This document shows positions 45,028-59,300 of a DNA stretch of 64,000 bases, piece by piece. The DNA is from an uncultured Pseudomonadota bacterium (GTDB lineage Bacteria > Pseudomonadota > Gammaproteobacteria > Burkholderiales > SG8-39). Location: contig CAWFPL010000007.1 of assembly GCA_963817785.1 (NCBI GenBank), positions 338,598 to 402,597 on the forward strand, read 5' to 3'. The notes beneath the pieces are model-generated. The model had not been told where the DNA came from and did no database searches. It saw nothing but the letters and a program-made list of their open reading frames with translations. A program made the translations under genes and the position numbers. Every line of letters starts with the position of its first letter. Positions within the stretch are counted from its first letter, which is position 1.

Positions 45028-47718
45028 GTGTCTTTGCAGACGATGGGGGGAGACATGGGGAGCGCCAGGGAAGACTACGAGCACTTCGTGCGCTGGCTGC
45101 ACCAGCCCGACAGGCGCGTTCGAGAGGACGTTCTGCGCTTTGCCAACATGGTTCTGGCGGACTTCGAGCGTACCGCCGGGACCTTCCGCCAGCACAATAG
45201 CCGTTCAAACCATCTGGCGGTCCTCGCGCGCCGAGTTCTTGCCACGACATCTGCTGCTGTGCCAGAGGCACCGGCGCAGAACCCCGCACTACCTTGGCCT
45301 TGGAAGAGACTGCGGCAGCTCTCGGTTGGTCCGTTCAGGGGATTTCGACGAAACGAGTCGTTCGACCTGCAAAAGCGCGTGCTTCTTATCTACGGGCCGA
45401 ACGGCAGCGGTAAGAGCAGTCTGTGCGAGGCGTTGGAGCACACGCTCCTCGGAACGGTGCAGGAAGCTGAGGCCAGACGCATCGAGGCCCAGCAGTACTT
45501 CGCAAACATCCATGCCCGACGCTTCGTCGCGCCACGGCTCACGGCAACGGATCATGGCGACCAGGAAATCGTCGTAGCGGCGAATCCCGACACTTATCGT
45601 TTCTGCTTCGTCGAAAAGAATCGCATCGAAGCATTTGCGCGGATGGCTGCTCGGCCACCCGCCACGAGGACCGAGCTCATCGCCACGCTGTTTGGCATGG
45701 AGAAATTTAACGACTTTGCGAGTCACTTCAACGAATCGATGGATGCGGCGCTGGTTTGCGACGCCGAGAACGAGCGTGCATTGACCAGCCGCCGGCAAGT
45801 TCTCGCCCGCGACCAGCAAACCGTCGCCGCCGAGCAAGCGTCCTTGATGAAGCTCAACCAGGGGGAAGCGACATTCGCCGAGGGCTGCCGGCCAGGCACG
45901 TCCTATGTCGATCTCAAGGCGTGGATTGGTACTCCGGAAGCGCCCGGACGCCTGCAGGAGCTTGACGGCATCCTGAACGTCGTTCCGCCGGCGGTCGTGG
46001 GGATCACACGCGAGGGATTGGCCAATCGCTATACGGCAGCGGACGGCGCAGCGGACCGCTTGGGAACAGCGACCAGACAGCTCGAGGCAAGAAGCCACCA
46101 GGTTTCCTTCAAGGACCTTTACACCGCAGTGCTCGCCTTGCAAGCGGCCCATGAAGACCGATGCCCTGCGTGCGACACCCCGCTGAATGCCGTTACCACT
46201 GATCCGTACCAGAAGGCAACGGCGGGTCTACGGGATCTCCGCGATCTTGCCGCACTGCAGGAAGAGGCCGCGCGTTGTCGCCAACAGCTGGATGAGGCAT
46301 CACGATCCTTGCGTGTGGACCTCAATATCGCGTTCGCTTCGATGACTCAGAACGAGCAGAACACGACGCCCGTGGGGCGCTATATCGCCGGACTGGATCA
46401 AGCACCACGCGGTGATCGCTGGTGGCAGGACGTCTACGCTCCAATAAGAGGTGACGGCCGGGAAGTGGAGCCGGCGTCGCTGGAGCAAGTGCTGGAAATC
46501 GCGTCGCGCATCGAGCTACGGGATCAGGAGATTCAACGTCAGGTTCAGGAACGTCAGGCACTCGTCCAAGAACGGGATACGCTGCTATTGTGGCAGCGTC
46601 AGATTCTGGAGCGGGACCTCGCCCGCAAATCCGCTGTGGATGAGATCGCCGCGGCCCGAGGACGTATCGCGCGATTTGACGAAGAAAATTCGGGTCTTAT
46701 TCAGCGGGCTGCCCAAGAACGTCAGAACATCGAGCGGGATCGCCCCATTAAGGTGGCGTACGACCAGTTTCTACCGATGCTGCGGTGCTTTAGGAACGAA
46801 CTGCCCGGCTTGCTGATGGAGGGCCTCAACGATCTCGCGAGAGACCTTTACAACGAATTCAACCAGCACGATCCCGAAGCGGACAAATTCGCCTCGCTGC
46901 ACCTTCCCCTAACGGGCGAACAGCGCATCGATATCGCATTTCGTGGCGACCCACAGCGTCGCCTCGACGCCCTGGTGATTCTGAGTGAGGGACATATTCG
47001 ATGTCTCGGACTTGCAATCCTGATGGCGAAGGCGATCAGCACTGGCTGCTCGCTGATCATATTCGACGATGCGATCAACGCCATCGACCATGACCATCGG
47101 AGCGGTATTCGGCAGACTATTTTCGAGAGCGATCGTTTTCGGGAGATTCAGCTCGTCGTCACCTGCCACAGCGGTGAGTTCATCAAGGACATCCACAATC
47201 ATTTGCCGCAGTACAGCCGAAACGATTGGACGGAGTATGTCATCAGCCACCACGCCGGCGACTATCATCCACAGGTGGTCTCGAACACAATGAGCCGAAA
47301 CTACGTGGAGCGGGCGCGAGTCGCCAAGAACGCATTGGACGACCGCGAGGCGCTTTCCTGCGGTCGCAGAGCACTGGAAATGCTATCCAACAAGGTCTGG
47401 AAATGGCTCGCGTCCTTCGGCCGCGGCGAACTGCGATTGGAACTGAGAGGTCCGGGAGCCGAGCCGTCGCTGCGAGATCTCTGCGAAGCGCTGCGTACAA
47501 GATTGAACGACAATACCTTCGTGCATCCGGAGAAGGATTCGATTGTCGATGCCCTGAATCTCATACTGGGAATTCCGGCACAAAACCTTATTTGGACCTA
47601 TCTCAACAAGGGCACGCACGAACGCGCCGATCGCGACGATTTCGACGCAGCGCATGTCGAAAGCGTAATTGCCACACTTGAACATCTCAACGACCTTCGG
47701 CTACGTCGCGCTGCATAG
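45028..47718 (+). CDS. Rad50/SbcC-like ABC (SMC-type) ATPase with CxxC hook and extra C-terminal domain
   Basis: Walker A GPNGSGKS, long coiled-coil insert containing RCPACD, signature-like LSEGH, Walker B LIIFDDAINAID, H-loop VVTCHS. Alternative ATG starts at 45043 and 45055. Confidence 0.7.
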   Translation: MSLQTMGGDMGSAREDYEHFVRWLHQPDRRVREDVLRFANMVLADFERTAGTFRQHNSRSNHLAVLARRVLATTSAAVPEAPAQNPALPWPWKRLRQLSVGPFRGFRRNESFDLQKRVLLIYGPNGSGKSSLCEALEHTLLGTVQEAEARRIEAQQYFANIHARRFVAPRLTATDHGDQEIVVAANPDTYRFCFVEKNRIEAFARMAARPPATRTELIATLFGMEKFNDFASHFNESMDAALVCDAENERALTSRRQVLARDQQTVAAEQASLMKLNQGEATFAEGCRPGTSYVDLKAWIGTPEAPGRLQELDGILNVVPPAVVGITREGLANRYTAADGAADRLGTATRQLEARSHQVSFKDLYTAVLALQAAHEDRCPACDTPLNAVTTDPYQKATAGLRDLRDLAALQEEAARCRQQLDEASRSLRVDLNIAFASMTQNEQNTTPVGRYIAGLDQAPRGDRWWQDVYAPIRGDGREVEPASLEQVLEIASRIELRDQEIQRQVQERQALVQERDTLLLWQRQILERDLARKSAVDEIAAARGRIARFDEENSGLIQRAAQERQNIERDRPIKVAYDQFLPMLRCFRNELPGLLMEGLNDLARDLYNEFNQHDPEADKFASLHLPLTGEQRIDIAFRGDPQRRLDALVILSEGHIRCLGLAILMAKAISTGCSLIIFDDAINAIDHDHRSGIRQTIFESDRFREIQLVVTCHSGEFIKDIHNHLPQYSRNDWTEYVISHHAGDYHPQVVSNTMSRNYVERARVAKNALDDREALSCGRRALEMLSNKVWKWLASFGRGELRLELRGPGAEPSLRDLCEALRTRLNDNTFVHPEKDSIVDALNLILGIPAQNLIWTYLNKGTHERADRDDFDAAHVESVIATLEHLNDLRLRRAA

Positions 47719-48179: not shown

Positions 48180-49480
48180 AACAGCGTCCTAGTCGTCGAC
48201 ATCGCTAAATATGGATCGCCCCTTCGGCGCTGCAGCGACCTTTGCTGGTGAAATGTTCGACCAAAAACCAACATCTTCCTCGGGGGCTTTCTTATTGGAA
48301 ACGTCTGCTATGGCGTCGTCGATCTGGCCACTTAGTAAATCCAGCATGTTTTGAACAGTCGCGTCGTCCGAAAACGCTTCTTGCAATTGCTCAACAAAGT
48401 TCCGGACCTGGTCAAATTGGTTTGGTATATCAAACTCTGGATCAGCTTCATCTGCAAGTTCCGATATGCGGTCCGAAACAACGCTGTCGAGTGTGGCCAC
48501 CAGCTGGACTCCTAGTCGTATAAGTTGAGTGGGCCGAAGGAGCGCCAGGATGTCGTCGTCACTCAAGAAGGAGGCGTCAAGGTCGTTAAGCGCGGCCCGT
48601 TCGAGTTTGTCTGCCATTTCAAAGCGAATCTCCTCCGGCAGTCGGTGCAGATTGTGAACGCGTGCGAGAAAGCGCAGCCGCCGGTCACTGGCGATTCGCC
48701 AAAAGTGTTGGTGTTGAGCCTCACGTCGAAACAAAATTGAGTCTGCACCCAAAATGGCGGTGACCACTGTGTCTGATGCGCGGTTTGTTAAGAACTCAAG
48801 CAGAGGTCCATTGATTTCAGGCACGTCGGGCACCCCAATCAAACGACCAACTAAGTGCTCAAATGCCGACAGCGGAATAACAACAGCATCGCGAATCGAT
48901 TCGGCACCTTCGCATACGGCTTCGGCAAGCAATGTCTCGAGCTTCGCCCCCTGAACATATAGTTCCACTAGGTCGGAACGCGCGCTTAGCATGCTACTGA
49001 TAGCATCGGTGAACGTGGGGTGCACGAAGCCCCAGATCTGCTGAGAATCGTCTTGGCGAACCGATACAAATGACCCCTTCAACTGCGGTAGCGCATCAGC
49101 AATCGCGCGCGCAGTGACGCCGTACTTTTCGGCGACCAGGCTCGTCGAATCGCTAGCGAGGTCATGCGCCGGCAGCCTTCCTTGGCGAAGGAAGACAAGG
49201 GTCATGGCCGCTTGGTGCGGCTCGTCCAACTCTCGGATCGTTTGAACCAAGAACTCTGCCGGTTCTGCGACAAACTTGATCAAGTCATCAGGAAAGCTTT
49301 TCAGCGCTTTGGTATAGGTGCGATCGCCCAAGCGACGTGCAATCTCCGGCAGCAGCCGCGAATTTCCGGCTAATGCAGGTAGGTGGGCCTTTATCCGGCG
49401 CTTCCAAGCAGCTGTTTGATTCCCCGCCTTCAAATGGTTATAGATGATCTGCTCGCGTTCTTCTGGGCTTAATGAACCTA

Positions 49481-50583
49481 TTGAGTATTTCCTAACCTCG
49501 TGACAACCGAATTGTTCCTCATGCGTTACTCGGGTGTTGGCATAACATCGGAGTTTGCGCATGAAGACGAAGAACAAAATCGATGCCGGGGCGAAGCGCC
49601 GGGTGCGGGCGGCGCGGCTGCTTCAGGCCGGTCACGCTCCCGCGCAGGTGGCTGCTATGGTGGGCGCGCCGCGCCAGACGGTATACCGCTGGAAGGGCGT
49701 GCTGGAGTCCGAGGGAATCGATGCGCTTCGGAGCGTGAGCAAGGGCGGGCGTCCCGCCCGACTCGGTGCCGAGGAACTGTCCAAGCTGCAAGTAGCTTTG
49801 CTCGAAGGCCCGACGGCGCACGGCTTTGGCACGTCGCTCTGGACGATCAAGCGGGTGCGCGTGTTTATCGAGCGGCGCTTCGGCGTTCACTACAGCGAGG
49901 TTCATGTCTGGCGGTTGCTCGGGCAGTTGGGCTTCTCCAGCCAGAAGCCCGATCGGCGTGCGCTGGAGCGCGATGATGTGGCCATCGAGCATTGGAAGCG
50001 GCACACCTGGCCCGGGCTTAAAAAAAAGCCCGCCGCGAGGACCGGCTGATCGTCTTCATCGACGAATCGGGCCTGTCGCAGCGCCCCACACGGGTGCGCA
50101 CCTGGGCGGTGAGAGGCGAGACTCCGGTGCTCCAGTTCTGCTTCAACTGGGACCACGTCTCGGTGATCGCCGGAATGCACTATCGCGGCGTGTGCTTTCG
50201 GCTTCACGAAGGCTCGGTCAAGAAAGAGCAGGTCCTCGAGTTCCTCAAGGCGCTCAAAGCCCACTATCGCCGCCGGCTTCTCATCTTGTGGGATGGAGGC
50301 AGACCTCACCGCAGTCGCTTGGTGCGCGACTACGTGGACTCGACCGACGGCGACATCCAGCTCGAGTTCCTGCCCGGCTACGCCCCGGAACTCAACCCCG
50401 TGGAGTACCTCTGGGCTTGGCTCAAGCGCCATGCGCTGGCGAACTTCTGCCCCGAGACGTTGAGCGAACTCCAGCACACCGCTCGCGGCAAGCTGAAATC
50501 CGCCCAACGGCGCTCCGCCATCATCGCCTCCTGCTGGGAACAGGCTCAACTGTTCTAATGTCATGCGGTTAGGTAATACTCAA
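49481..50583 (+). mobile_element. IS630-family insertion sequence, copy 1 (1103 bp, TA target duplication)
   Basis: Imperfect terminal inverted repeats TTGAGTATTTCCTAACC... / ...GGTTAGGTAATACTCAA, flanked by TA on both sides. Confidence 0.9.
49561..50558 (+). CDS. IS630-family transposase, two frames joined by a -1 shift at an A8 run
   Basis: The HTH part ends just after CTTAAAAAAAAG. The DDE part (LIVFIDESG...LPGYAPELNPVEYLW) continues in the -1 frame. Confidence 0.85.
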
Positions 50584-52004
50584 TAGATCGACTACGGCCC
50601 TGTCATCTGCTAGAACGGGCAAATTCCTCGTACCCAGTTTCGGTTTCGCGCCATGCCAGATGTGGCTCCGAGAGGTCAGAATGAATCGGTTTCCGGACTC
50701 AATCGCCGCCTTCACCTTTGGCATCGCGTTGATCCAACAATCGACAAAATCCGATCTGAGTTGATTTGGTCCGAACGCATCGTCGACCCAGTAGAGTCGA
50801 TTCTTCTCGTGCGGATTCCATCGACTGGCTAGTTCGAGGGGGCCGTCACACTTCAGACATTGATGGTGCTCGCCGTCGATTGCAGTCGTTGACAGGATCG
50901 CGGCGAGCATGGACTTTCCAGTCGCGGGTGCCCCCAGAAGCAGAACGATCTTGTGTTCTGCCAACATACGGACGGCGGTGCGATGGGCGGCAGTTGGTAC
51001 GTAGACACGCAGGCCTGGTTGCAGGTGTCCCAGAAGGGCTTGCGTTTGCTGCGTGCATCTTTCATCAAGGATCGTCGATAAGTCCCCCAAGCCATATACA
51101 CATGGCACCAAGGCTCGCAATCGAGCGCTGCCTCGGATCTGTAGCGTCACCCACTCTCGACCGAGTACATGGGGCTCACGAACGCCCGCTTCGACAAGTT
51201 TGTCTCGGATTTGCGCAGCGACAGGGGCATCGACTCCCAAGCTCGTAATGAGATAGTACGTCTCTGCTCGTCTCGCGGCCACCAACTCGCGAACCGTAGC
51301 CAACTCTGCATCAATAGCAGTTGCACGCAGCCGCTGGTCGGCCTTGCCGCTAAACTTGCACTGAACGGTGGCTTCAGAGCCCGTTTGGTCAGAGCCTGCC
51401 TTTCGCAATTGGAAGACGGCGTCTTGCCCACCGTCCTGGGCCTCGCGGTAGATCGAGACTGTTGTACCCAATGTCTCCGCGCATACCTGCGCGCAGAGAT
51501 CTTGAAATGCCTTCCACCCAAGCGTGTGAATGGCTAGATCAACGTTGGCGCCTTGTACCTGCACTTCAGCCTCCGGCCTTCATGCTGGAATGGATGGACT
51601 AGAAATCTGCGTGTTTGCAATCTGGGACATAGGTCGCGGTACGCTCCGTGGGCAGGCAAACACAGCGCCGTTCAGCTAAATGGCCCTTCCAAGTCATTTA
51701 ATCACCGAACAGCCGAAACGCCCAGACCCTCTCGACCTGAATGTTCGCAGCCTGCAGCGCCAGGCGCACGGACTCGGCATCGGGCGCCCGGTAAAGGCTG
51801 ATCATTCGCCGGCGGTCGGACGACAGGTAGCGCCATAAGTGTGCCAAGGGCAATCAGCATTTTTCAGAGTGTCGCAATTTGCCTCCCCTGATCCCCGTAA
51901 AATCGCAAATGGCCGAATCAGCGGGGCGGATCGCCCAGTCACCGCCAACTGCGGCATTCTACTTTTCAGTGGCTCCTTTCTGGAAACGCGGCAGGCTACT
52001 TCGG

Positions 52005-52301: not shown

Positions 52302-53132
52302 CTATTTTCGGTTTGGGCGGCGAACCACGCTCGTCCCATTCTCGTTGTAGCGCACCGGAAACGCATCAGGGTCATAGCGCGCGTCTAGCATCGAGGCCTC
52401 GGGCAATATCAGCGTCAGCACCTCACTCCCCATGGCCACGGAATGTTCGCGCACCTCGTATTCGCCGCCGTCGGCGTTCGTAAACCATGCGTCGGCTCCA
52501 GACTTTCGAAGCCCCGTTTCCTGCTTGCCGGAGATGAGCAGGTCGTACGCAAAGCTATCTTCGTCGAGTTCTTGCTTGAGATACCACCTGCGAGGGACGT
52601 CCGGCGTCCGTAAAAACCACCGCAGCCCACTGTCGTCGTAGCTGGTCAGGATGGCCGGCACGGTATTAACGTCGATAAGTCGAATCGCAGCACTCAAGAG
52701 TCCGCAGTCAAAATCTGCTGCGAGGAGAGCGAGGTCGTTTAGCGAAGGCGTCTTGATTTCCTTAATGCGCGGCTTAAACAGATGACCAGGCATTAGCAAG
52801 TGGGCCGCATAGTGATCCGCTTCGCGCTCCTTGGTTCGGTCTGCTGCAGCCAAGTTGACGGACACATCGTCGACGCGGCATCGGAAAGACTGTCCCCGAT
52901 GATGATGCCAGTGGCCGAGCTCGTGGCCGATGGAAAACCGCTGACGCGTCGGGCGGATGCCCTTCTGGATGGTCGCGATCGCGCGACCCCCTATGCCAAC
53001 GAGGGTCGCTTCGCACCCTTGCAGGCGCTCGTAGCGCACTTCCACGCCAGCCTCGAAGGCGATCGCTTCGACATCGATCTCCTTGGGTGCAGTGATGCCG
53101 AGCTCGGCGATGCATTCCTCGGCCGGGTGCAT
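52302..53132 (-). CDS. ImmA/IrrE-family zinc metallopeptidase with about 130-aa C-terminal domain
   Basis: HEXXH motif HELGHW with downstream E...HLLMP. Third gene of a tightly packed operon. Confidence 0.75.
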   Translation of the reverse strand: MHPAEECIAELGITAPKEIDVEAIAFEAGVEVRYERLQGCEATLVGIGGRAIATIQKGIRPTRQRFSIGHELGHWHHHRGQSFRCRVDDVSVNLAAADRTKEREADHYAAHLLMPGHLFKPRIKEIKTPSLNDLALLAADFDCGLLSAAIRLIDVNTVPAILTSYDDSGLRWFLRTPDVPRRWYLKQELDEDSFAYDLLISGKQETGLRKSGADAWFTNADGGEYEVREHSVAMGSEVLTLILPEASMLDARYDPDAFPVRYNENGTSVVRRPNRK

Positions 53133-53135
53133 GGG

Positions 53136-53537
53136 CTACTGAGGCTCGTCCGTGGGGGAGATTCCGAGCTCTCTCAACTGCCGATAGATGCGAAGCACAT
53201 CGTCGTCGGACATTTCCTTGAGGTCCCTCGCCGCTAGAGTGAATCGCGGATTGTTAACCGCTTCCGCGATGACGCGCCGAGCCTCGCCGACGTCGATAGG
53301 CTCCTCGACAGCCGGGACCATTGTACGGCGATCCAATGCCCGCCGGGCGGCCTGCAATCGGCGCTTTCCAGCCTCCTGCCGCGCGGCCTGCACAATTTCG
53401 GCAAACCGCGCGCGCTCGGGGGCTCCCGTCTGCGGAGCGCCAAGGATATCTTCCTCCGGCTGTTGCTGCAGGCTCTCGAGATAACCATCGATGAACGCCT
53501 GAAGTTGTTGTACGGCGTTCCCCTTGCTGTCGCTCAT
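53136..53537 (-). CDS. hypothetical 133-aa protein between the sigma-like and ImmA genes
   Basis: ATG overlaps the upstream stop (ATGA). Its own stop lies 3 nt before the ImmA start. No HTH recognised. Confidence 0.55.
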   Translation of the reverse strand: MSDSKGNAVQQLQAFIDGYLESLQQQPEEDILGAPQTGAPERARFAEIVQAARQEAGKRRLQAARRALDRRTMVPAVEEPIDVGEARRVIAEAVNNPRFTLAARDLKEMSDDDVLRIYRQLRELGISPTDEPQ

Positions 53538-54142
53538 TTTTGCCTCCAAGGTCTCGCCAACTCCTTGCACTTTCGGTGCATCCGCTTTCGGATCGTGTCG
53601 AGCTCAGACTCGGTCACGCGCAGCGATTCGCGAAGCTCATCGCCCCTCAGACCCTTGGCGAGCTCCTCGATCAGCACCGAAACGTCTACGTCGTCCTGAA
53701 ATAGAGCTTCGATCTTGCCTAAGGCCTGCCGGGCGGCGGCCAAGCGCTCGGGGTCGCGCAGCTCGACTGCTTCGGGCCCGCGCTCCTCTTCCTCCTCGGC
53801 GTCTTCCGGGTCGGAAAAAACGTCGATGCGTGACCGTCGGCTCGCCTTCGCAGCCGCGTTTGCGATGCTGCTCATCGCCTTCCATAAGAATGGCACGATG
53901 GCCAGGCCGCGGGGGCACCTGCGCTGGAGGGCAAAGGCGCGCACCAAGGCCTCCTGCAAGAGGTCCTCCGGAGATTCGAACCCATTGATGTAACAGAACA
54001 ATTCCGCCCCGCGCTGGAGGATGGCTTCCTCCTTCGCGGTGAGGGCAGCGATAGCCGCCTCAACCTCAGCACGCGACAGAGCATCTACAGCGTCCGGCGC
54101 ATCCAATTCCTGCAAGGTCGCCTCCTCTGAGACATGCTCCAT
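53534..54142 (-). CDS. ECF-type sigma-70-like protein
   Basis: Start at M98 of the track ORF. PEDLLQEALVRAF resembles region 2. LRGDELRESLRVTESELDTIRKRMHRKCKEL resembles the region 4 HTH. Confidence 0.5.
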   Translation of the reverse strand: MEHVSEEATLQELDAPDAVDALSRAEVEAAIAALTAKEEAILQRGAELFCYINGFESPEDLLQEALVRAFALQRRCPRGLAIVPFLWKAMSSIANAAAKASRRSRIDVFSDPEDAEEEEERGPEAVELRDPERLAAARQALGKIEALFQDDVDVSVLIEELAKGLRGDELRESLRVTESELDTIRKRMHRKCKELARPWRQK

Positions 54143-54444
54143 CGGCGCAGTTTGCGGACACGCCGAAAAAAATTCTTTGCATGTCCGGAGATGCCGAGCA
54201 TGGAGCCTTTCTATATGTAGGCGGCGGCGGCGGCCGGCTCGGGGATCTACAGCGGGCTGGAGCAATCGCGGGCTACGGAGCGGAAATGTAAGGGCATAAC
54301 CGATGGACGCACAAGCCGAGCAATTGCTTCTGGAGATTGGCATACAGCTCGACGCCGGGATATTTCCGAAAGTCAAAAACGGGGGATTCGTGATGCCCGG
54401 CGAGCCCTCCCGACCTCTACCTAATCGGGGCAAGGAGAAGTCAG

Positions 54445-55220
54445 ATGGAGAAGGACAAGAGCGAGAAGGACCGCGGGAAACAGGAGAATCCCGGCCATGG
54501 CGAGGAGATCCCAGGCCGCGGCCAGGGCAACTCGGGCGACCACGGCCGTCCGGACCACTCTGGGCGGCCGGTAAAGCCGCACCGGTCGTCAGCGCGCTGG
54601 ATCAGTACGAGCAGGAAGTAAGTGCGCTGCAAGCGATTTACCCAGACGCGCGGTCTTGGAGAACGCAACGGGGGGTATGGCTTGCCGTTAGAGCAAGGCT
54701 GCTCCCCGGGCTACGCGAGCACGCGCTCTTCCTCATGGGCGTGCCCGCCGTCACCGGCGTGGTCCGAAGCTGGGCGTTCTGGGTAGATCCTATCTTTCTT
54801 CCCGTTTGGATTGGTCCCCGTCACACAAACTTCGGCGACGGCTCCATCTGCGCCTTCGAGCCGGCCGATGGCACATGGAGCTTCGGGGATTCGCTCATCG
54901 AGCTCGTGGACATGTACGCGGTCTGGGCTTTGAGGCATCTGCACCTGCGGCATACCGGGCGGTGGCCGGGCCCCCAGGCCGTACATCGTCCCTACGAACG
55001 GCTCCTCGAAATAGGATCCGACGAGCGGTGTGGTTGCCCGACACCCCGGGGAACATACTCACGATGCTGCCGCAGTCGTGACCTCGGCCGCGACCGCATC
55101 GCTGACGCGGTGGACTTCCTGATCTTTTCGCGCTGGCAGCTCCGTCGTCCGCTGCCGGTCGTGGAGCAATTTGTCTCCACCGGCTTTCGAAACATCGAAA
55201 TGCTCGAAAGACTCATCTGA
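54445..55220 (+). CDS. UBC/E2-like protein with C-terminal SEC-C-like Cys motif; frame changes near 54575-54595 as written
   Basis: ATG at 54445 follows AGGAGA, and that frame has GC-rich third positions but stops at 54621. The E2-like body (RHTNFGDGSICAFEPADGTWS; CGCPTPRGTYSRCC) is in the frame of track ORF 54303..55220. Confidence 0.45.
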
Positions 55221-55499
55221 CGCCGGCATCGCAGTGGCGTAAGGGACCGCTTGCGGTTGCGTACTCAGTCGCGGCTAATCCAGCGTTGACGGCCGCGGAA
55301 GCGCACCCTCTTAACGATGTCGTCGGCGTCCCCCAAAAACCAGCTCCAGATGATGTGCGTGTTGCGGCCTTTCGCCTCGCGCGCGTTAGTATCCATAATT
55401 CGCATTATCGACGCTGAGCTCTCCGGCCGCACGACCGCTTGGGGTCGCATTCCGACCGCTGTACGCTCGCCTTGAGAGCTGGACGCAGGAGATCGAGTA

Positions 55500-56390
55500 G
55501 TGGGTAGCATTTTCGTCGTCGGAGCGGGCCTTTCCAAGACATGTGGGATAGCGACGGATTTGGAGATGCTCGATCAACTCAATCCGTTGCTACGGCGTAC
55601 GCCGTCAAAGGAAGATATCGCGTTCCGAGTCGCGCCGGAGAGGTGGAAAACGACGATCGAATCTCTGCGTGAGCAACTGTTCCATTATCGCGCAGGAGTC
55701 GGGTTCGAGTTGTTTATGTCAACGCTCTGGGCGGCGAAGTATTCGGCTTACTATCTAGAGCTCGACAGGAATATCTTTCGCGAAGAGGAGCGGGAGCTCC
55801 AGCGCGCTCTCAAGAGATACCTAAAGGACTGCGTGCGCCGAATTGATTGGGGTGAGTCGGGCGGGAGGACGATTCTAGAGCTTGTGCGGTCGATTAACTG
55901 GAATACAGACTTCGTAATAACGTTCAATTATGACCAACTGCTCGAGGCCGCTGCGGCTCGGTCGGGTCTTCGAACGGAAAATCGCATCCTCCATCTCCAC
56001 GGCGCAATGAACGAGCGGACGCTGGCTTGGCCGATCTATGCGAAGTTCGCCTATCGAACGACGAAGACTGCATTGGGTAAGCGCTGGAAGCGAGCTTTCC
56101 AGATACTTCGCGGACAGAGGGAAATCGATCGAGTGGATCGCCTTATCTTTATCGGCTATTCCATGCCGTCGTCAGATCTCGAAGCGTTGACCCTGTTTCT
56201 CTACACTGATTGGTACAACAGTCGCGACACGCACAACTATTCGGTAATGGTGGTAAACCCGAGCGACGTGCAGAACAACTATGCGTTTCTCCGAAAGGTC
56301 CCGGAGTACCGGCAACAGACTCTTGCCGATTGGTTGAGGAGTTCAAAGACACCTCCTGCGGGGCAACCGAATTTAGATCAAGCTACGTAA
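55500..56390 (+). CDS. stand-alone SIR2-like (SIR2_2 family) protein
   Basis: GTG start 8 nt after AGGAG. Motifs VVGAGLS, ITFNYDQLLE, LHLHG, LIFIGYSMPSSD. Confidence 0.7.
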   Translation: MGSIFVVGAGLSKTCGIATDLEMLDQLNPLLRRTPSKEDIAFRVAPERWKTTIESLREQLFHYRAGVGFELFMSTLWAAKYSAYYLELDRNIFREEERELQRALKRYLKDCVRRIDWGESGGRTILELVRSINWNTDFVITFNYDQLLEAAAARSGLRTENRILHLHGAMNERTLAWPIYAKFAYRTTKTALGKRWKRAFQILRGQREIDRVDRLIFIGYSMPSSDLEALTLFLYTDWYNSRDTHNYSVMVVNPSDVQNNYAFLRKVPEYRQQTLADWLRSSKTPPAGQPNLDQAT

Positions 56391-56558
56391 CGAAAGCGCT
56401 AGTAGTCAGTACTACCGGTCGGGGATGGCCGCTTCGGGTCTGGTGCCGTCCGTCGCCGCTGACGAACGCGGCCATTCACCCAGCGTAGCAAGTCAACGTC
56501 TGCAACCTGCGCGACACCAGTCATTCAACTGAGCCAACGCCACTGGCAGCAACGGCCG

Positions 56559-58168
56559 GATTCTGTTGAAAAACCTCGCCGGTGATCGAATCTTTGGTCC
56601 CATGAAGTGTCCGATCTTCCAGTGCATTGAGGGAGCACTTCAAGATGATGGGACAGCAATCGGGCGGGCAAGAGCGACTGTTCTATTCGTTCAATCTTGA
56701 AGATCACGTTCCGGCGAAGCACCTGCTGCGCGGCATCGACCGATGCCTCGATCTGAGCGGGCTGCGCGAACACCTGGCCAAGTATTACAGCCACACGGGT
56801 CGGCCCTCGGTCGATCCGGAACTGATGGTGCGGATGCTGATCATCGGCTACAGCTACGGCATTCGTTCGGAGCGCCGCCTGTGCGAGGAGGTGCATCTGA
56901 ACCTCGCGTATCGCTGGTTCTGTCGTCTTGGTCTGGAGGATGCCGTACCGGAGCATTCCACCTTCTCCAAGAACCGGCATGGGCGATTTCGCGAGAGCGG
57001 CGCGTTTCGCTGGGTGTTTGAGGAGGTGGTGCGTTGCTGCATGGCGGCGGGCCTGGTCAAGGCAGAGGGCTTTGCGGTGGACGCGAGTCTGATTGCTGCC
57101 AACGCAAGCCATCAGCACAGCGTTGCGCCCGGTGAGCATTGCGATTGGAACAATCCCCAGATCGACACGCGCGCGATGCGCGAGTATCTGGCGGCCCTGG
57201 ATGATGAGGAGCTTGCCGCGGCAGCGTCGCGCAAGCTATCGCTCAGCGACCCGCACGCGCGCTGGACGGCGGCGACCGGAGGCATCGCCTTCTTCGCCTA
57301 CTCGACCAACTATCTGATCGACGTGGCTCATGGGGTGATCCTCGACGTGCAAGCGACGCCTGCTCACCGTACGGCGGAAGTCGAATCCACCAAGACCATG
57401 ATCGAGCGGGTCGAAGAGCACTTCGATCTCAAACCGCAGCGGCTCATCGCGGACATGGCCTATGGCTCGGCGCCGATGTTGGGCTGGATGGTCGAACAGA
57501 AGGCGATCGAGCCGCATGTGCCGGTGTGGGACAAGACCGAGCGCAAGGATGGCACCCTAGAGCGCGACGCCTTTCAATGGGACGAAGAAGCCGACGAATA
57601 CCGCTGCCCGCAGGGCTACGCCTTGCGCCGCCAATGGCGTCCCTTCAAGAACTCGCGCACGCACATCACCCAAGGCGAAACCGTCATCTATCGCTCAAGT
57701 AAGCGCAGTTGCACCGTCTGTCCGATGAAACCCCGGTGCTGCCCGAATACGCCCTTTCGCAAGATTGCCCGCAGCACCCACGAGTCGGCGCGTGACGTTG
57801 CTCGACGCATCGCCACCACGGCGGCGTATCAACGATCGCGCTGCGAGCGCAAGAAGGTCGAGATGCTCTTCGCGCACCTTAAGTCCATCCTCAAGCTCGA
57901 TCGCCTACGGCTTCGCGGACTCAGTGGCGCCACGGATGAATTCACCCTTGCCGCCACCGCCCAGAATTTGCGGCGTCTGGCCAAGCTCGTCTCACCGGCA
58001 CCACCGCTTCACGGGATAGGTGCGCCCGCATGAGGTGAAACCCTCCGAATTAGCCGACAAGCAAGGCTTCAAAGCCCAGTGCCGGGCACCAAAGCCCATC
58101 ACCTCGCGTCATTACTGCCAATATCCAAGCGCCAGTTCAGCCGCAACGTCGAGTTCTTCAACAGAATC
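56559..58168 (+). mobile_element. IS1182-family (IS5-like) insertion sequence
   Basis: Terminal inverted repeats GATTCTGTTGAAaAAC / GTTcTTCAACAGAATC enclose a single transposase gene. Confidence 0.8.
56645..58033 (+). CDS. IS1182-family transposase
   Basis: InsH-type N-terminus GRPSVDPELMVRMLIIGYSYGIRSERRLCEEV...AYRWFC and DDE-type C-terminus. Confidence 0.85.
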   Translation: MMGQQSGGQERLFYSFNLEDHVPAKHLLRGIDRCLDLSGLREHLAKYYSHTGRPSVDPELMVRMLIIGYSYGIRSERRLCEEVHLNLAYRWFCRLGLEDAVPEHSTFSKNRHGRFRESGAFRWVFEEVVRCCMAAGLVKAEGFAVDASLIAANASHQHSVAPGEHCDWNNPQIDTRAMREYLAALDDEELAAAASRKLSLSDPHARWTAATGGIAFFAYSTNYLIDVAHGVILDVQATPAHRTAEVESTKTMIERVEEHFDLKPQRLIADMAYGSAPMLGWMVEQKAIEPHVPVWDKTERKDGTLERDAFQWDEEADEYRCPQGYALRRQWRPFKNSRTHITQGETVIYRSSKRSCTVCPMKPRCCPNTPFRKIARSTHESARDVARRIATTAAYQRSRCERKKVEMLFAHLKSILKLDRLRLRGLSGATDEFTLAATAQNLRRLAKLVSPAPPLHGIGAPA

Positions 58169-58197
58169 GCCGAGGAGCGGCTGCTCGCGACGTCTTA

Positions 58198-59300
58198 TTG
58201 AGTATTTCCTAACCTCGTGACAACCGAATTGTTCCTCATGCGTTACTCGGGTGTTGGCATAACATCGGAGTTTGCGCATGAAGACGAAGAACAAAATCGA
58301 TGCCGGGGCGAAGCGCCGGGTGCGGGCGGCGCGGCTGCTTCAGGCCGGTCACGCTCCCGCGCGGGTGGCTGCTATGGTGGGCGCGCCGCGCCAGACGGTA
58401 TACCGCTGGAAGGGCGTGCTGGAGTCCGAGGGAATCGATGCGCTTCGGAGCGTGAGCAAGGGCGGGCGTCCCGCCCGACTCGGTGCCGAGGAACTGTCCA
58501 AGCTGCAAGTAGCTTTGCTCGAAGGCCCGACGGCGCACGGCTTTGGCACGTCGCTCTGGACGATCAAGCGGGTGCGCGTGTTTATCGAGCGGCGCTTCGG
58601 CGTTCACTACAGCGAGGTTCATGTCTGGCGGTTGCTCGGGCAGTTGGGCTTCTCCAGCCAGAAGCCCGATCGGCGTGCGCTGGAGCGCGATGATGTGGCC
58701 ATCGAGCATTGGAAGCGGCACACCTGGCCTGGGCTTAAAAAAAAGCCCGCCGCGAGGACCGGCTAATCGTCTTCATCGACGAATCGGGCCTGTCGCAGCG
58801 CCCCACGCGGGTGCGCACCTGGGCGGTGAGAGGCGAGACTCCGGTGCTCCAGTTCTGCTTCAACTGGGACCACGTCTCGGTGATCGCCGGAATGCACTAT
58901 CGCGGCGTGTGCTTTCGGCTTCACGAAGGCTCGGTCAAGAAAGAGCAGGTCCTCGAGTTCCTCAAGGCGCTCAAAGCCCACTATCGCCGCCGGCTTCTCA
59001 TCTTGTGGGATGGAGGCAGACCTCACCGCAGTCGCTTGGTGCGCGACTACGTGGACTCGACCGACGGCGACATCCAGCTCGAGTTCCTGCCCGGCTACGC
59101 CCCGGAACTCAACCCCGTGGAGTACCTCTGGGCTTGGCTCAAGCGCCATGCGCTGGCGAACTTCTGCCCCGAGACGTTGAGCGAACTCCAGCACACCGCT
59201 CGCGGCAAGCTGAAATCCGCCCAACGGCGCTCCGCCATCATCGCCTCCTGCTGGGAACAGGCTCAACTGTTCTAATGTCATGCGGTTAGGTAATACTCAA
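58198..59300 (+). mobile_element. IS630-family insertion sequence, copy 2 (same orientation, TA flanks)
   Basis: Collinear with copy 1. I saw four mismatches. It lies 29 bp from the IS1182 end. Confidence 0.9.
58278..59275 (+). CDS. IS630-family transposase (copy 2), -1 shift at an A8 run
   Basis: Same two-frame organisation as copy 1. Confidence 0.85.

Follow-up and report, generated by a model that had tools for sequence, protein, structure and literature searches.

A SIR2 gene that stands alone raises the question of how an NAD-destroying enzyme with neither a sensor nor a partner stays silent until a phage arrives. Such a gene is present in the stretch of 64,000 nt analysed here (the window), where it follows a gene for an E2-like protein on the same strand. 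Immune SIR2 proteins form a clade of their own, termed 'SIRim' (10.1101/2024.09.18.613514), and lone members of this kind could be switched on by an adjacent gene or could act by themselves. The initial annotation supposed that a minimal NAD-depleting effector would need an external activator, and it implied a functional tie of the SIR2 gene to the E2-like gene and to the whole block at 52.3-56.4 kb. Here, the reading frame, the protein family, the predicted structure and the genomic neighbourhood of the SIR2 gene were analysed, and the loci of its homologues were compared with the window.

The SIR2 gene and its active-site motifs

The SIR2 gene (product P0001) is a real and intact gene. Its start codon is GTG, the first canonical start past an in-frame TGA at 55473, and the homologues share the aligned start position (MGTVY.. 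versus VGSIF..). The features of the locus are collected in Table 1. The ribosome-binding site AGGAG/GGAG agrees with the initial annotation, which had credited the gene with a site of its own; it had also placed the gene about 280 nt downstream of the E2-like gene on the same strand, and the gap was found to be 279 nt from the stop codon at 55220. All four hallmark segments quoted there were recovered in the translation, namely VVGAGLS (residues 6-12), TFNYDQLLE (141-149), LHLHG (164-168) and FIGYSMPSSD (217-226).

Table 1. Features of the SIR2 locus and its surroundings, in coordinates of the window.
Feature	Coordinates	Strand	Basis or remark
CapP (M78) peptidase	52302-53132	-	PADLOC capP 8.9e-57, Pfam M78
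144-aa protein with weak CapH-like tail	53136-53570	-	PADLOC capH 1.9e-4
Sigma-70/ECF-like protein	53534-~54142	-	weak NCBIfam sigma matches
E2/UBC-like protein, 305 aa, with SEC-C-like CGC..CC knuckle	54303..55220	+	family, motif, structure, PADLOC; context, judged a separate module
Spacer between E2-like and SIR2 genes, 279 nt	55221..55499	.	simple scans and similarity searches
Ribosome-binding site AGGAG/GGAG	55485..55491	+	read from sequence; 8 nt from its end to GTG
SIR2_2 ('SIRim'-type) gene P0001, 296 aa	55500..56390	+	ORF and translation, Pfam, 83 homologues, AF2 model, fold Z
GAGLS glycine-rich NAD-binding loop, residues 8-12	55521..55535	+	G8, A9, G10 and S12 at least 90% conserved (alignment, n=28)
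TFNYD motif, residues 141-145	55920..55934	+	5/5 residues invariant (alignment, n=28)
HLHG motif, residues 165-168	55992..56003	+	H165, H167 and G168 invariant (alignment, n=28)
IGYSMP strand-loop of Rossmann core, residues 218-223	56151..56168	+	G219 to P223 invariant; model strand E212-218
IS5/IS1182-family insertion sequence	56553..58179	+	162 nt past SIR2 stop; transposase 56627-58033; Pfam DUF772/DDE_Tnp_1
IS630-family copy splitting the Mrr-nSTAND3 gene	49479..50578	+	second direct copy 58196-59295

The cores of these segments (GAGxS, TFNYD, HLHG and IGYSMP) show little or no variation across 28 homologues. We take N143 and D145 to be the catalytic or NAD-ribose ligands, since sirtuins and ThsA/DSR2 have the comparable TxN(I/Y)D motif, and H167 is presumably the catalytic histidine. 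The conserved NAD-loop, Asn/Asp and His positions are, on this assumption, those which define sirtuin-type active sites. The protein contains only two cysteines (C15 and C110) and no CxxC pair, and therefore the Cys4 zinc module of sirtuins is missing. This module had been singled out in the initial annotation as the mark of a housekeeping deacetylase; in addition to its absence, the canonical Pfam SIR2 profile (PF02146) gave no match to the protein at E ≤ 1.

A small SIR2 family with patchy distribution

The Pfam family SIR2_2 (PF13289) gave residues 138-250 a score of 26.5 bits, narrowly (by 2 bits) above its gathering score of 24.5. With this match above the gathering score and the NAD-site motifs intact, the earlier assignment to the defence-type SIR2_2 proteins was upheld. 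The next family was AbiH (PF14253), whose partial match to residues 89-176 scored 27.3 bits, below its gathering score of 30.9. NCBIfam yielded no match to the protein. The PADLOC matches were weak, the best being the SIR2 model of SIR2-HerA (1.6e-6); PDC-S21 and PDC-S25, which are likewise lone SIR2-like candidate defence genes, matched marginally (E 1.4e-3) and over the partial stretches 52-149 and 88-150.

A word-indexed search returned 83 relatives with about 40-62% identity (closest non-self E = 4e-109), well outside what chance would give; all of them are unnamed proteins. Their lengths range from about 210 to 350 aa, with nearly all between 270 and 300 aa. The family comprises about 80 clusters at 90% identity and stems mainly from metagenomes and betaproteobacterial MAGs, the named hosts being a few MAGs of Burkholderiales, Betaproteobacteria, Gallionellaceae and Sulfuricaulis. 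In an exhaustive profile search of 1.84 billion representatives, two full-length clusters at 50% identity and fragments were obtained, followed after a large gap by remote SIR2_2 proteins of 300-400 aa. Fused or long relatives of 519-2000 aa were not found, which counts as weak evidence. The gene was present in 0 of 40 related genomes of the host, and no member of the family was found in the 'phages' and 'plasmids' collections (tblastn) or in IMG/VR. The distribution of the family is patchy and mobile.

A read-through reading frame of 561 aa was observed on a contig of a Gallionellaceae MAG (CAYZPM010000020.1; locus L010:7992-9677), where a SIR2 homologue with 40% identity runs stop-free into nadC. 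The NadC half is complete and carries both domains of quinolinate phosphoribosyltransferase (QRPTase_N and QRPTase_C). Read-through of this kind was not found beyond L010, and the MAG is co-assembled. The frame could be a true fusion of an NADase with NAD synthesis, the result of a lost stop codon, or an artefact of co-assembly.

Predicted structure and self-association

The AF2 model, which was computed with the alignment of homologues, reached a pLDDT of 88 and a pTM of 0.86. According to this model and to Pfam, the 296 aa form a single domain, in line with the earlier statement that no sensor domain is fused to the protein. Foldseek and VIA-align both placed the model in the SIR2 fold, with Z 14-18 to solved SIR2 domains. 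The SIR2 domain of SIR2-HerA was matched with Z 18.1 (248 aligned residues, rmsd 4.0), KomC with Z 16.3 (226 aligned), ThsA with Z 16.0 (229 aligned), DSR2 with Z 15.7 (217 aligned) and canonical sirtuins with Z of about 14.5 (about 195 aligned). Sequence identity to all structural matches was 11-18%, and a sequence-profile search for a solved relative gave only chance-level matches (SENP1 at 0.0075). The nearest Atlas clusters belong to the SIR2_2 and AbiH families and have 290-350 aa. On account of the fold matches, the low identity, the missing profile match and these Atlas neighbours, we place the protein as modelled within the immune-type SIR2 branch, as a distant and compact member.

A homodimer of the protein was predicted with a median ipSAE of 0.78 versus 0.00 for the best control. 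Among solved structures, 20 of 30 homodimers and 1 of 23 monomers passed the mark applied. Between the runs, at least 68% of the contacts agreed, and the pLDDT of the partner was at least 82. The prediction supports self-association of the protein, with the reservation that resemblance to SIR2 oligomers of solved structure may account for part of this result. Conserved residues account for 11 of 40 positions at the predicted interface versus 73 of 296 overall; since this is no enrichment, interface conservation was dropped as support for the dimer.

Comparison with known SIR2 systems

In architecture, the protein resembles AbiH of Lactococcus lactis (PF14253), a one-domain SIR2-like protein of about 300 aa which is encoded by a single gene on integrative/conjugative elements. 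Known as an Abi protein since 1996, AbiH has lately been found to be SIR2-like (PMC13064643). The likeness, which concerns architecture only, includes the AbiH clusters among the nearest Atlas neighbours and the lack of a conserved neighbouring gene. The protein differs from AbiH in that it stays under the Pfam gathering threshold and in that its hosts are betaproteobacterial-type MAGs and not Firmicutes. To our knowledge, a mechanism for AbiH has been lacking ever since its description in 1996.

With Z 16.5-18.1 over 245-261 residues, the SIR2 protein of SIR2-HerA/Nezha (8w9l, 8sub, 8su9) is the closest in structure, and it is also the best PADLOC model, but identity is 12-18% and the protein described here is about 100 residues shorter; moreover, no HerA-type gene was found among the window neighbours or the called genes of 8 homologue loci. 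KomC of Kongming (9v12, 9xvc, 8zsf) is similar in size (264-277 aa) and fold (Z 14.4-16.3). KomC is described as a minimal SIR2 needing outside activation (PMC13454610). Kongming differs in that KomC acts with KomB (HAM1-like) and a dITP signal, and no KomA/KomB (HAM1-like) gene was found by the SIR2 gene in the window block or in the listed homologue loci. The SIR2 domains of ThsA (Thoeris) and DSR2 have the same fold and catalytic motifs (Z 14-16). Unlike the protein described here, which is a SIR2 domain alone, they are joined to SLOG/Macro domains or to a sensor domain of about 700 aa; DSR1 and DSR2 have a total of about 1000 aa with a long C-terminal sensor, compared with 296 aa. Among the listed neighbourhoods of the family, no TIR (ThsB) gene was found. 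In contrast to effectors of type II-short CBASS, the protein has no extra domain for sensing cyclic nucleotides, and no match to a CD-NTase/SMODS was obtained among the ORFs of the window block. A lone SIR2 does not occur in the paper on defence in Streptococcus thermophilus, which treats SIR2-HerA alone.

Genomic setting

Upstream of the region lie genes for a relaxase, a coupling protein and VirB4/B6/B9/B10-type components (T4SS), and therefore the SIR2 region is regarded as cargo of a conjugative element. This cargo contains an SMC/LmuB-like ATPase, an Mrr-nSTAND3 gene split by an IS630 element, a CapP-sigma-E2 module, the SIR2 gene, an IS5-family element and a second IS630 element. The GC content of the genome is 67.3%, while that of the window between 44 and 58 kb is 54-62%, that of the E2-like gene 62.5% and that of the SIR2 gene 53.5%.

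The IS630-family element has a length of 1100 bp and occurs in at least 10 genomic copies with 99.6-100% identity. Three contig ends (C3, C6 and C8) stop inside copies, which means that the element breaks the assembly. Two copies bracket a stretch of 8.7 kb that holds the SIR2 gene. A composite transposon carrying this gene was considered and is not needed, since at least 10 near-identical copies exist and the left copy just interrupts a gene already in place, the Mrr-nSTAND3 gene (PADLOC PDC-S73-like), which is divided into 50569-51564 and 48189-49577. The ends of the IS5/IS1182-family element were set by means of a second genomic copy with 93% identity.

Two further observations were made in the cargo. 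An element of about 104 nt (56437-56540), located 47 nt past the SIR2 stop codon, recurs on contig C8 with 86% and 77% identity; one of these copies adjoins the other IS5-family copy in a different relative orientation, and the element looks like a MITE or REP-type repeat. The SMC/Rad50-like ATPase (896 aa; 45028-47718, + strand) has LmuB (4.7e-16), mad3 and PDC-S06 as best PADLOC matches, and no gene for a Lamassu partner was found beside it.

Neighbours of SIR2 homologues

In order to identify a partner of the SIR2 gene, 25 loci with close homologues and the window region at 44-60 kb were compared, and all ORFs of at least 50 aa were searched all against all. Apart from the SIR2 gene, no ORF of the window region is related to an ORF of the 25 homologue loci. 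The clusters common to homologue loci outside SIR2 comprise overlapping frames within SIR2, integrases and a 331-aa ORF in three loci (L003, L006 and L032). By this comparison, no conserved partner of the family was found in the 25 loci. Small upstream ORFs in L001, L003 and L005 were also considered as partners and rejected, as they are related neither to one another nor to the spacer of the window. Because no neighbour recurred in these loci apart from integrases and the 331-aa ORF, and long forms were not found except for the read-through frame in L010, the family is regarded as a one-gene module.

Homologues were found next to integrases or ICE genes in L001, L003, L067 and L069. Each in a single case, homologues also lay near a Bub-type E1/E2 operon, a NERD protein, a DEAD/MZB helicase and a PDC-S15 (FRG) protein; the latter was the only PADLOC match (1/10) among the immediate neighbours.

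Two of these loci deserve description. In L069 (2197-3196, - strand), the nearest relative (63% identity) adjoins a different SIR2_2 ORF (177 aa), which may be a fragment, as well as a 144-aa ORF; the group is located just downstream of a tyrosine integrase. In L067 (9117-13024), a Bub-type operon (Prok-E2_E, ThiF E1, BubE) is present at the homologue locus, and its M78 peptidase and HTH pair lies 1.2-5 kb away on the opposite strand. L067 is thus a second, independent instance of a lone SIR2 near an E2 and M78/HTH module, with an E2 family unrelated to that of the window.

The neighbours of the homologues are mostly not known defence genes, which together with the retained sirtuin-type catalytic residues and the read-through into nadC in the Gallionellaceae locus would fit a non-immune deacylase, an ADP-ribosyltransferase or an enzyme of NAD metabolism in the service of the mobile element or the host. 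However, the protein is set apart from canonical sirtuins (CobB/Sir2) by the missing zinc-binding Cys4 module and the missing PF02146 match, its structure is nearer to NADase-type immune SIR2 proteins than to deacetylases, its distribution is accessory, patchy, low in GC and tied to mobile elements, and the nadC link comes from a single locus in a co-assembled MAG. A non-immune role is accordingly considered quite unlikely.

The upstream E2-like gene and its CapP module

Pfam gave no match to the upstream 305-aa protein, which belongs to a family of at least 567 proteins. This family is characterized by an invariant WIGPRHTNF.DGS.CA motif, a CGC...Y..CC knuckle and the invariant residues H174, N176 and C183. 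The model of the protein has a pLDDT of 75, with residues 37-94 disordered, and in an unbiased search it matched only UBC, UEV and RWD folds. The best structural match was the E2 protein of a type II-short CBASS (CdnG-E2; Z 6.5, 127 residues, rmsd 3.6), and the PADLOC E2 model matched with 7.6e-5. The HxN...C motif, the UBC-fold matches and the PADLOC score give moderate support to the label 'E2-like' of the initial annotation.

Divergent from the E2-like gene lies the CapP/CapH-like/sigma block (52302..54142, - strand), a trio that also lies by the E2-like genes of L070 and L075. A divergent M78 peptidase, together with an HTH or a pair of small genes, accompanies the E2-like gene in 6 of 7 loci. 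In 4 of the 7 loci (L072, L074, L075 and L076), no gene follows downstream on its strand; in the window this place is taken by the small SIR2 gene, in L070 by IS (rve) fragments and then an unrelated 877-aa SIR2_2-TPR protein, and in L071 by SLATT and an IS-split SMODS. No match to the E2-like family was obtained in 400 genomes of the phylum. A CapP-gated lone E2-like protein would have no obvious substrate system, as an E1, a ubiquitin-like protein and a CD-NTase are absent.

The functional tie between the SIR2 gene and the E2-like gene or the 52.3-56.4 kb block, which the initial annotation had implied, was not borne out. No neighbour in the window is shared with the 25 loci, and none of these loci has a SIR2 homologue beside a CapP/E2-like module of the window's family. 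In 5 genomes carrying the SIR2 family, the E2-like family was not found, while the same query gave 2.5e-128 in the window's own genome. Owing to this lack of co-occurrence, the partners that the E2-like gene has of its own, the variable content downstream of it and the difference of 9 points in GC, we argue that the E2-like gene and the SIR2 gene are separate modules side by side in a cargo hotspot.

The same observations bear on the two-protein system implied by the initial annotation, in which the E2-like protein directly activates or modifies the SIR2 protein. Adjacency on the same strand, the retained HxN...C catalytic-type motif and the fact that related E2 proteins control a partner enzyme in type II-short CBASS (structural match 8hsb) are compatible with such a system. 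It is nevertheless judged highly improbable, as co-occurrence is absent in 25 loci and 5 genomes, the at least 567 members of the E2-like family mostly have no SIR2 neighbour, the GC of the two genes differs and the block is devoid of an E1, a ubiquitin-like protein and a CD-NTase.

Coupling at the level of transcription was considered separately. Simple scans revealed neither a terminator-like nor a sigma-70-like site in the 279-nt spacer, the promoter scan being low-powered in a genome with 67% GC, and the spacer matched neither the homologue loci nor any other part of the genome. As judged from these weak scans, read-through transcription from the E2-like gene into the SIR2 gene may occur. 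CapH/CapP-like pairs are found divergent from many defence operons, which they control, and CapH/CapP together with a sigma-70-type factor has been tabulated in 24 systems (Lau et al., 10.1101/2022.04.27.489752). The SIR2 protein could act as the effector at the distal end of a cassette under CapP/CapH-like/sigma control: CapP would be triggered by damage to the DNA or by phage infection, the sigma factor would be freed, transcription would proceed through the E2-like gene into the SIR2 gene, and the NADase would be controlled by its expression. Such coupling would be confined to this element and would not hold for the family. It draws on the shared strand, the distance of 279 nt without a terminator-like site and the presence of an effector-like gene 3' of the E2-like gene on the same strand in 3 of 7 loci (window, L070 and L071). 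On the other hand, the SIR2 gene has its own ribosome-binding site and a GC content 9 points below that of the E2-like gene, IS (rve) fragments separate the E2-like gene from SIR2_2-TPR in L070, the E2-like gene is the last on its strand in 4 of 7 loci, and no small-SIR2 homologue stands by a CapP/E2-like module of the window's family. This arrangement is possible and regarded as unlikely.

A more speculative extension, to which we assign a low probability, is that the CapP/CapH-like/sigma genes and the E2-like gene form a portable 'regulatory head' with interchangeable NAD- or membrane-targeting effectors (the small SIR2, SIR2-TPR in L070, SLATT with SMODS in L071). The minimal SIR2 of the window would then be an NADase without a sensor, restrained solely through transcription that damage switches on, perhaps with modification by the E2-like protein. 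If true, this would be a defence architecture without earlier description.

Discussion

The reading that we prefer, with a probability of roughly 0.55, is that the SIR2 gene is a horizontally acquired, single-gene, AbiH-like candidate for NAD-consuming defence or abortive infection, the product of which self-associates. Under this reading, the protein would be a homo-oligomerising enzyme that consists of one SIR2-fold domain and belongs to the immune ('SIRim', SIR2_2) branch. It would most likely bind and consume NAD+ as an NADase, or possibly act as an ADP-ribosyl-transferase. The gene would most likely constitute a self-contained cassette for abortive infection or defence, comparable to lactococcal AbiH, with a putative anti-phage role. 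A phage-derived cue might serve as trigger by acting on the helical insert of about 115 residues or on the oligomeric state. The gene probably arrived by horizontal transfer, would ride as cargo on the conjugative element and would be independent of the adjoining E2-like/CapP module.

The lone SIR2-like architecture as such is already known from AbiH, from lone candidates in PADLOC and from the 'SIRim' clade. New is a small, previously unnamed SIR2 family outside the current defence models (PADLOC v2 searched). The annotation of the locus is also corrected, in that the SIR2 gene and the E2-like gene are not one system. As the proteins of this family are compact (about 290 aa), model well, are confidently predicted to form a symmetric dimer and allow easy cloning, the family could serve as a minimal model for how a lone SIR2 is kept silent.
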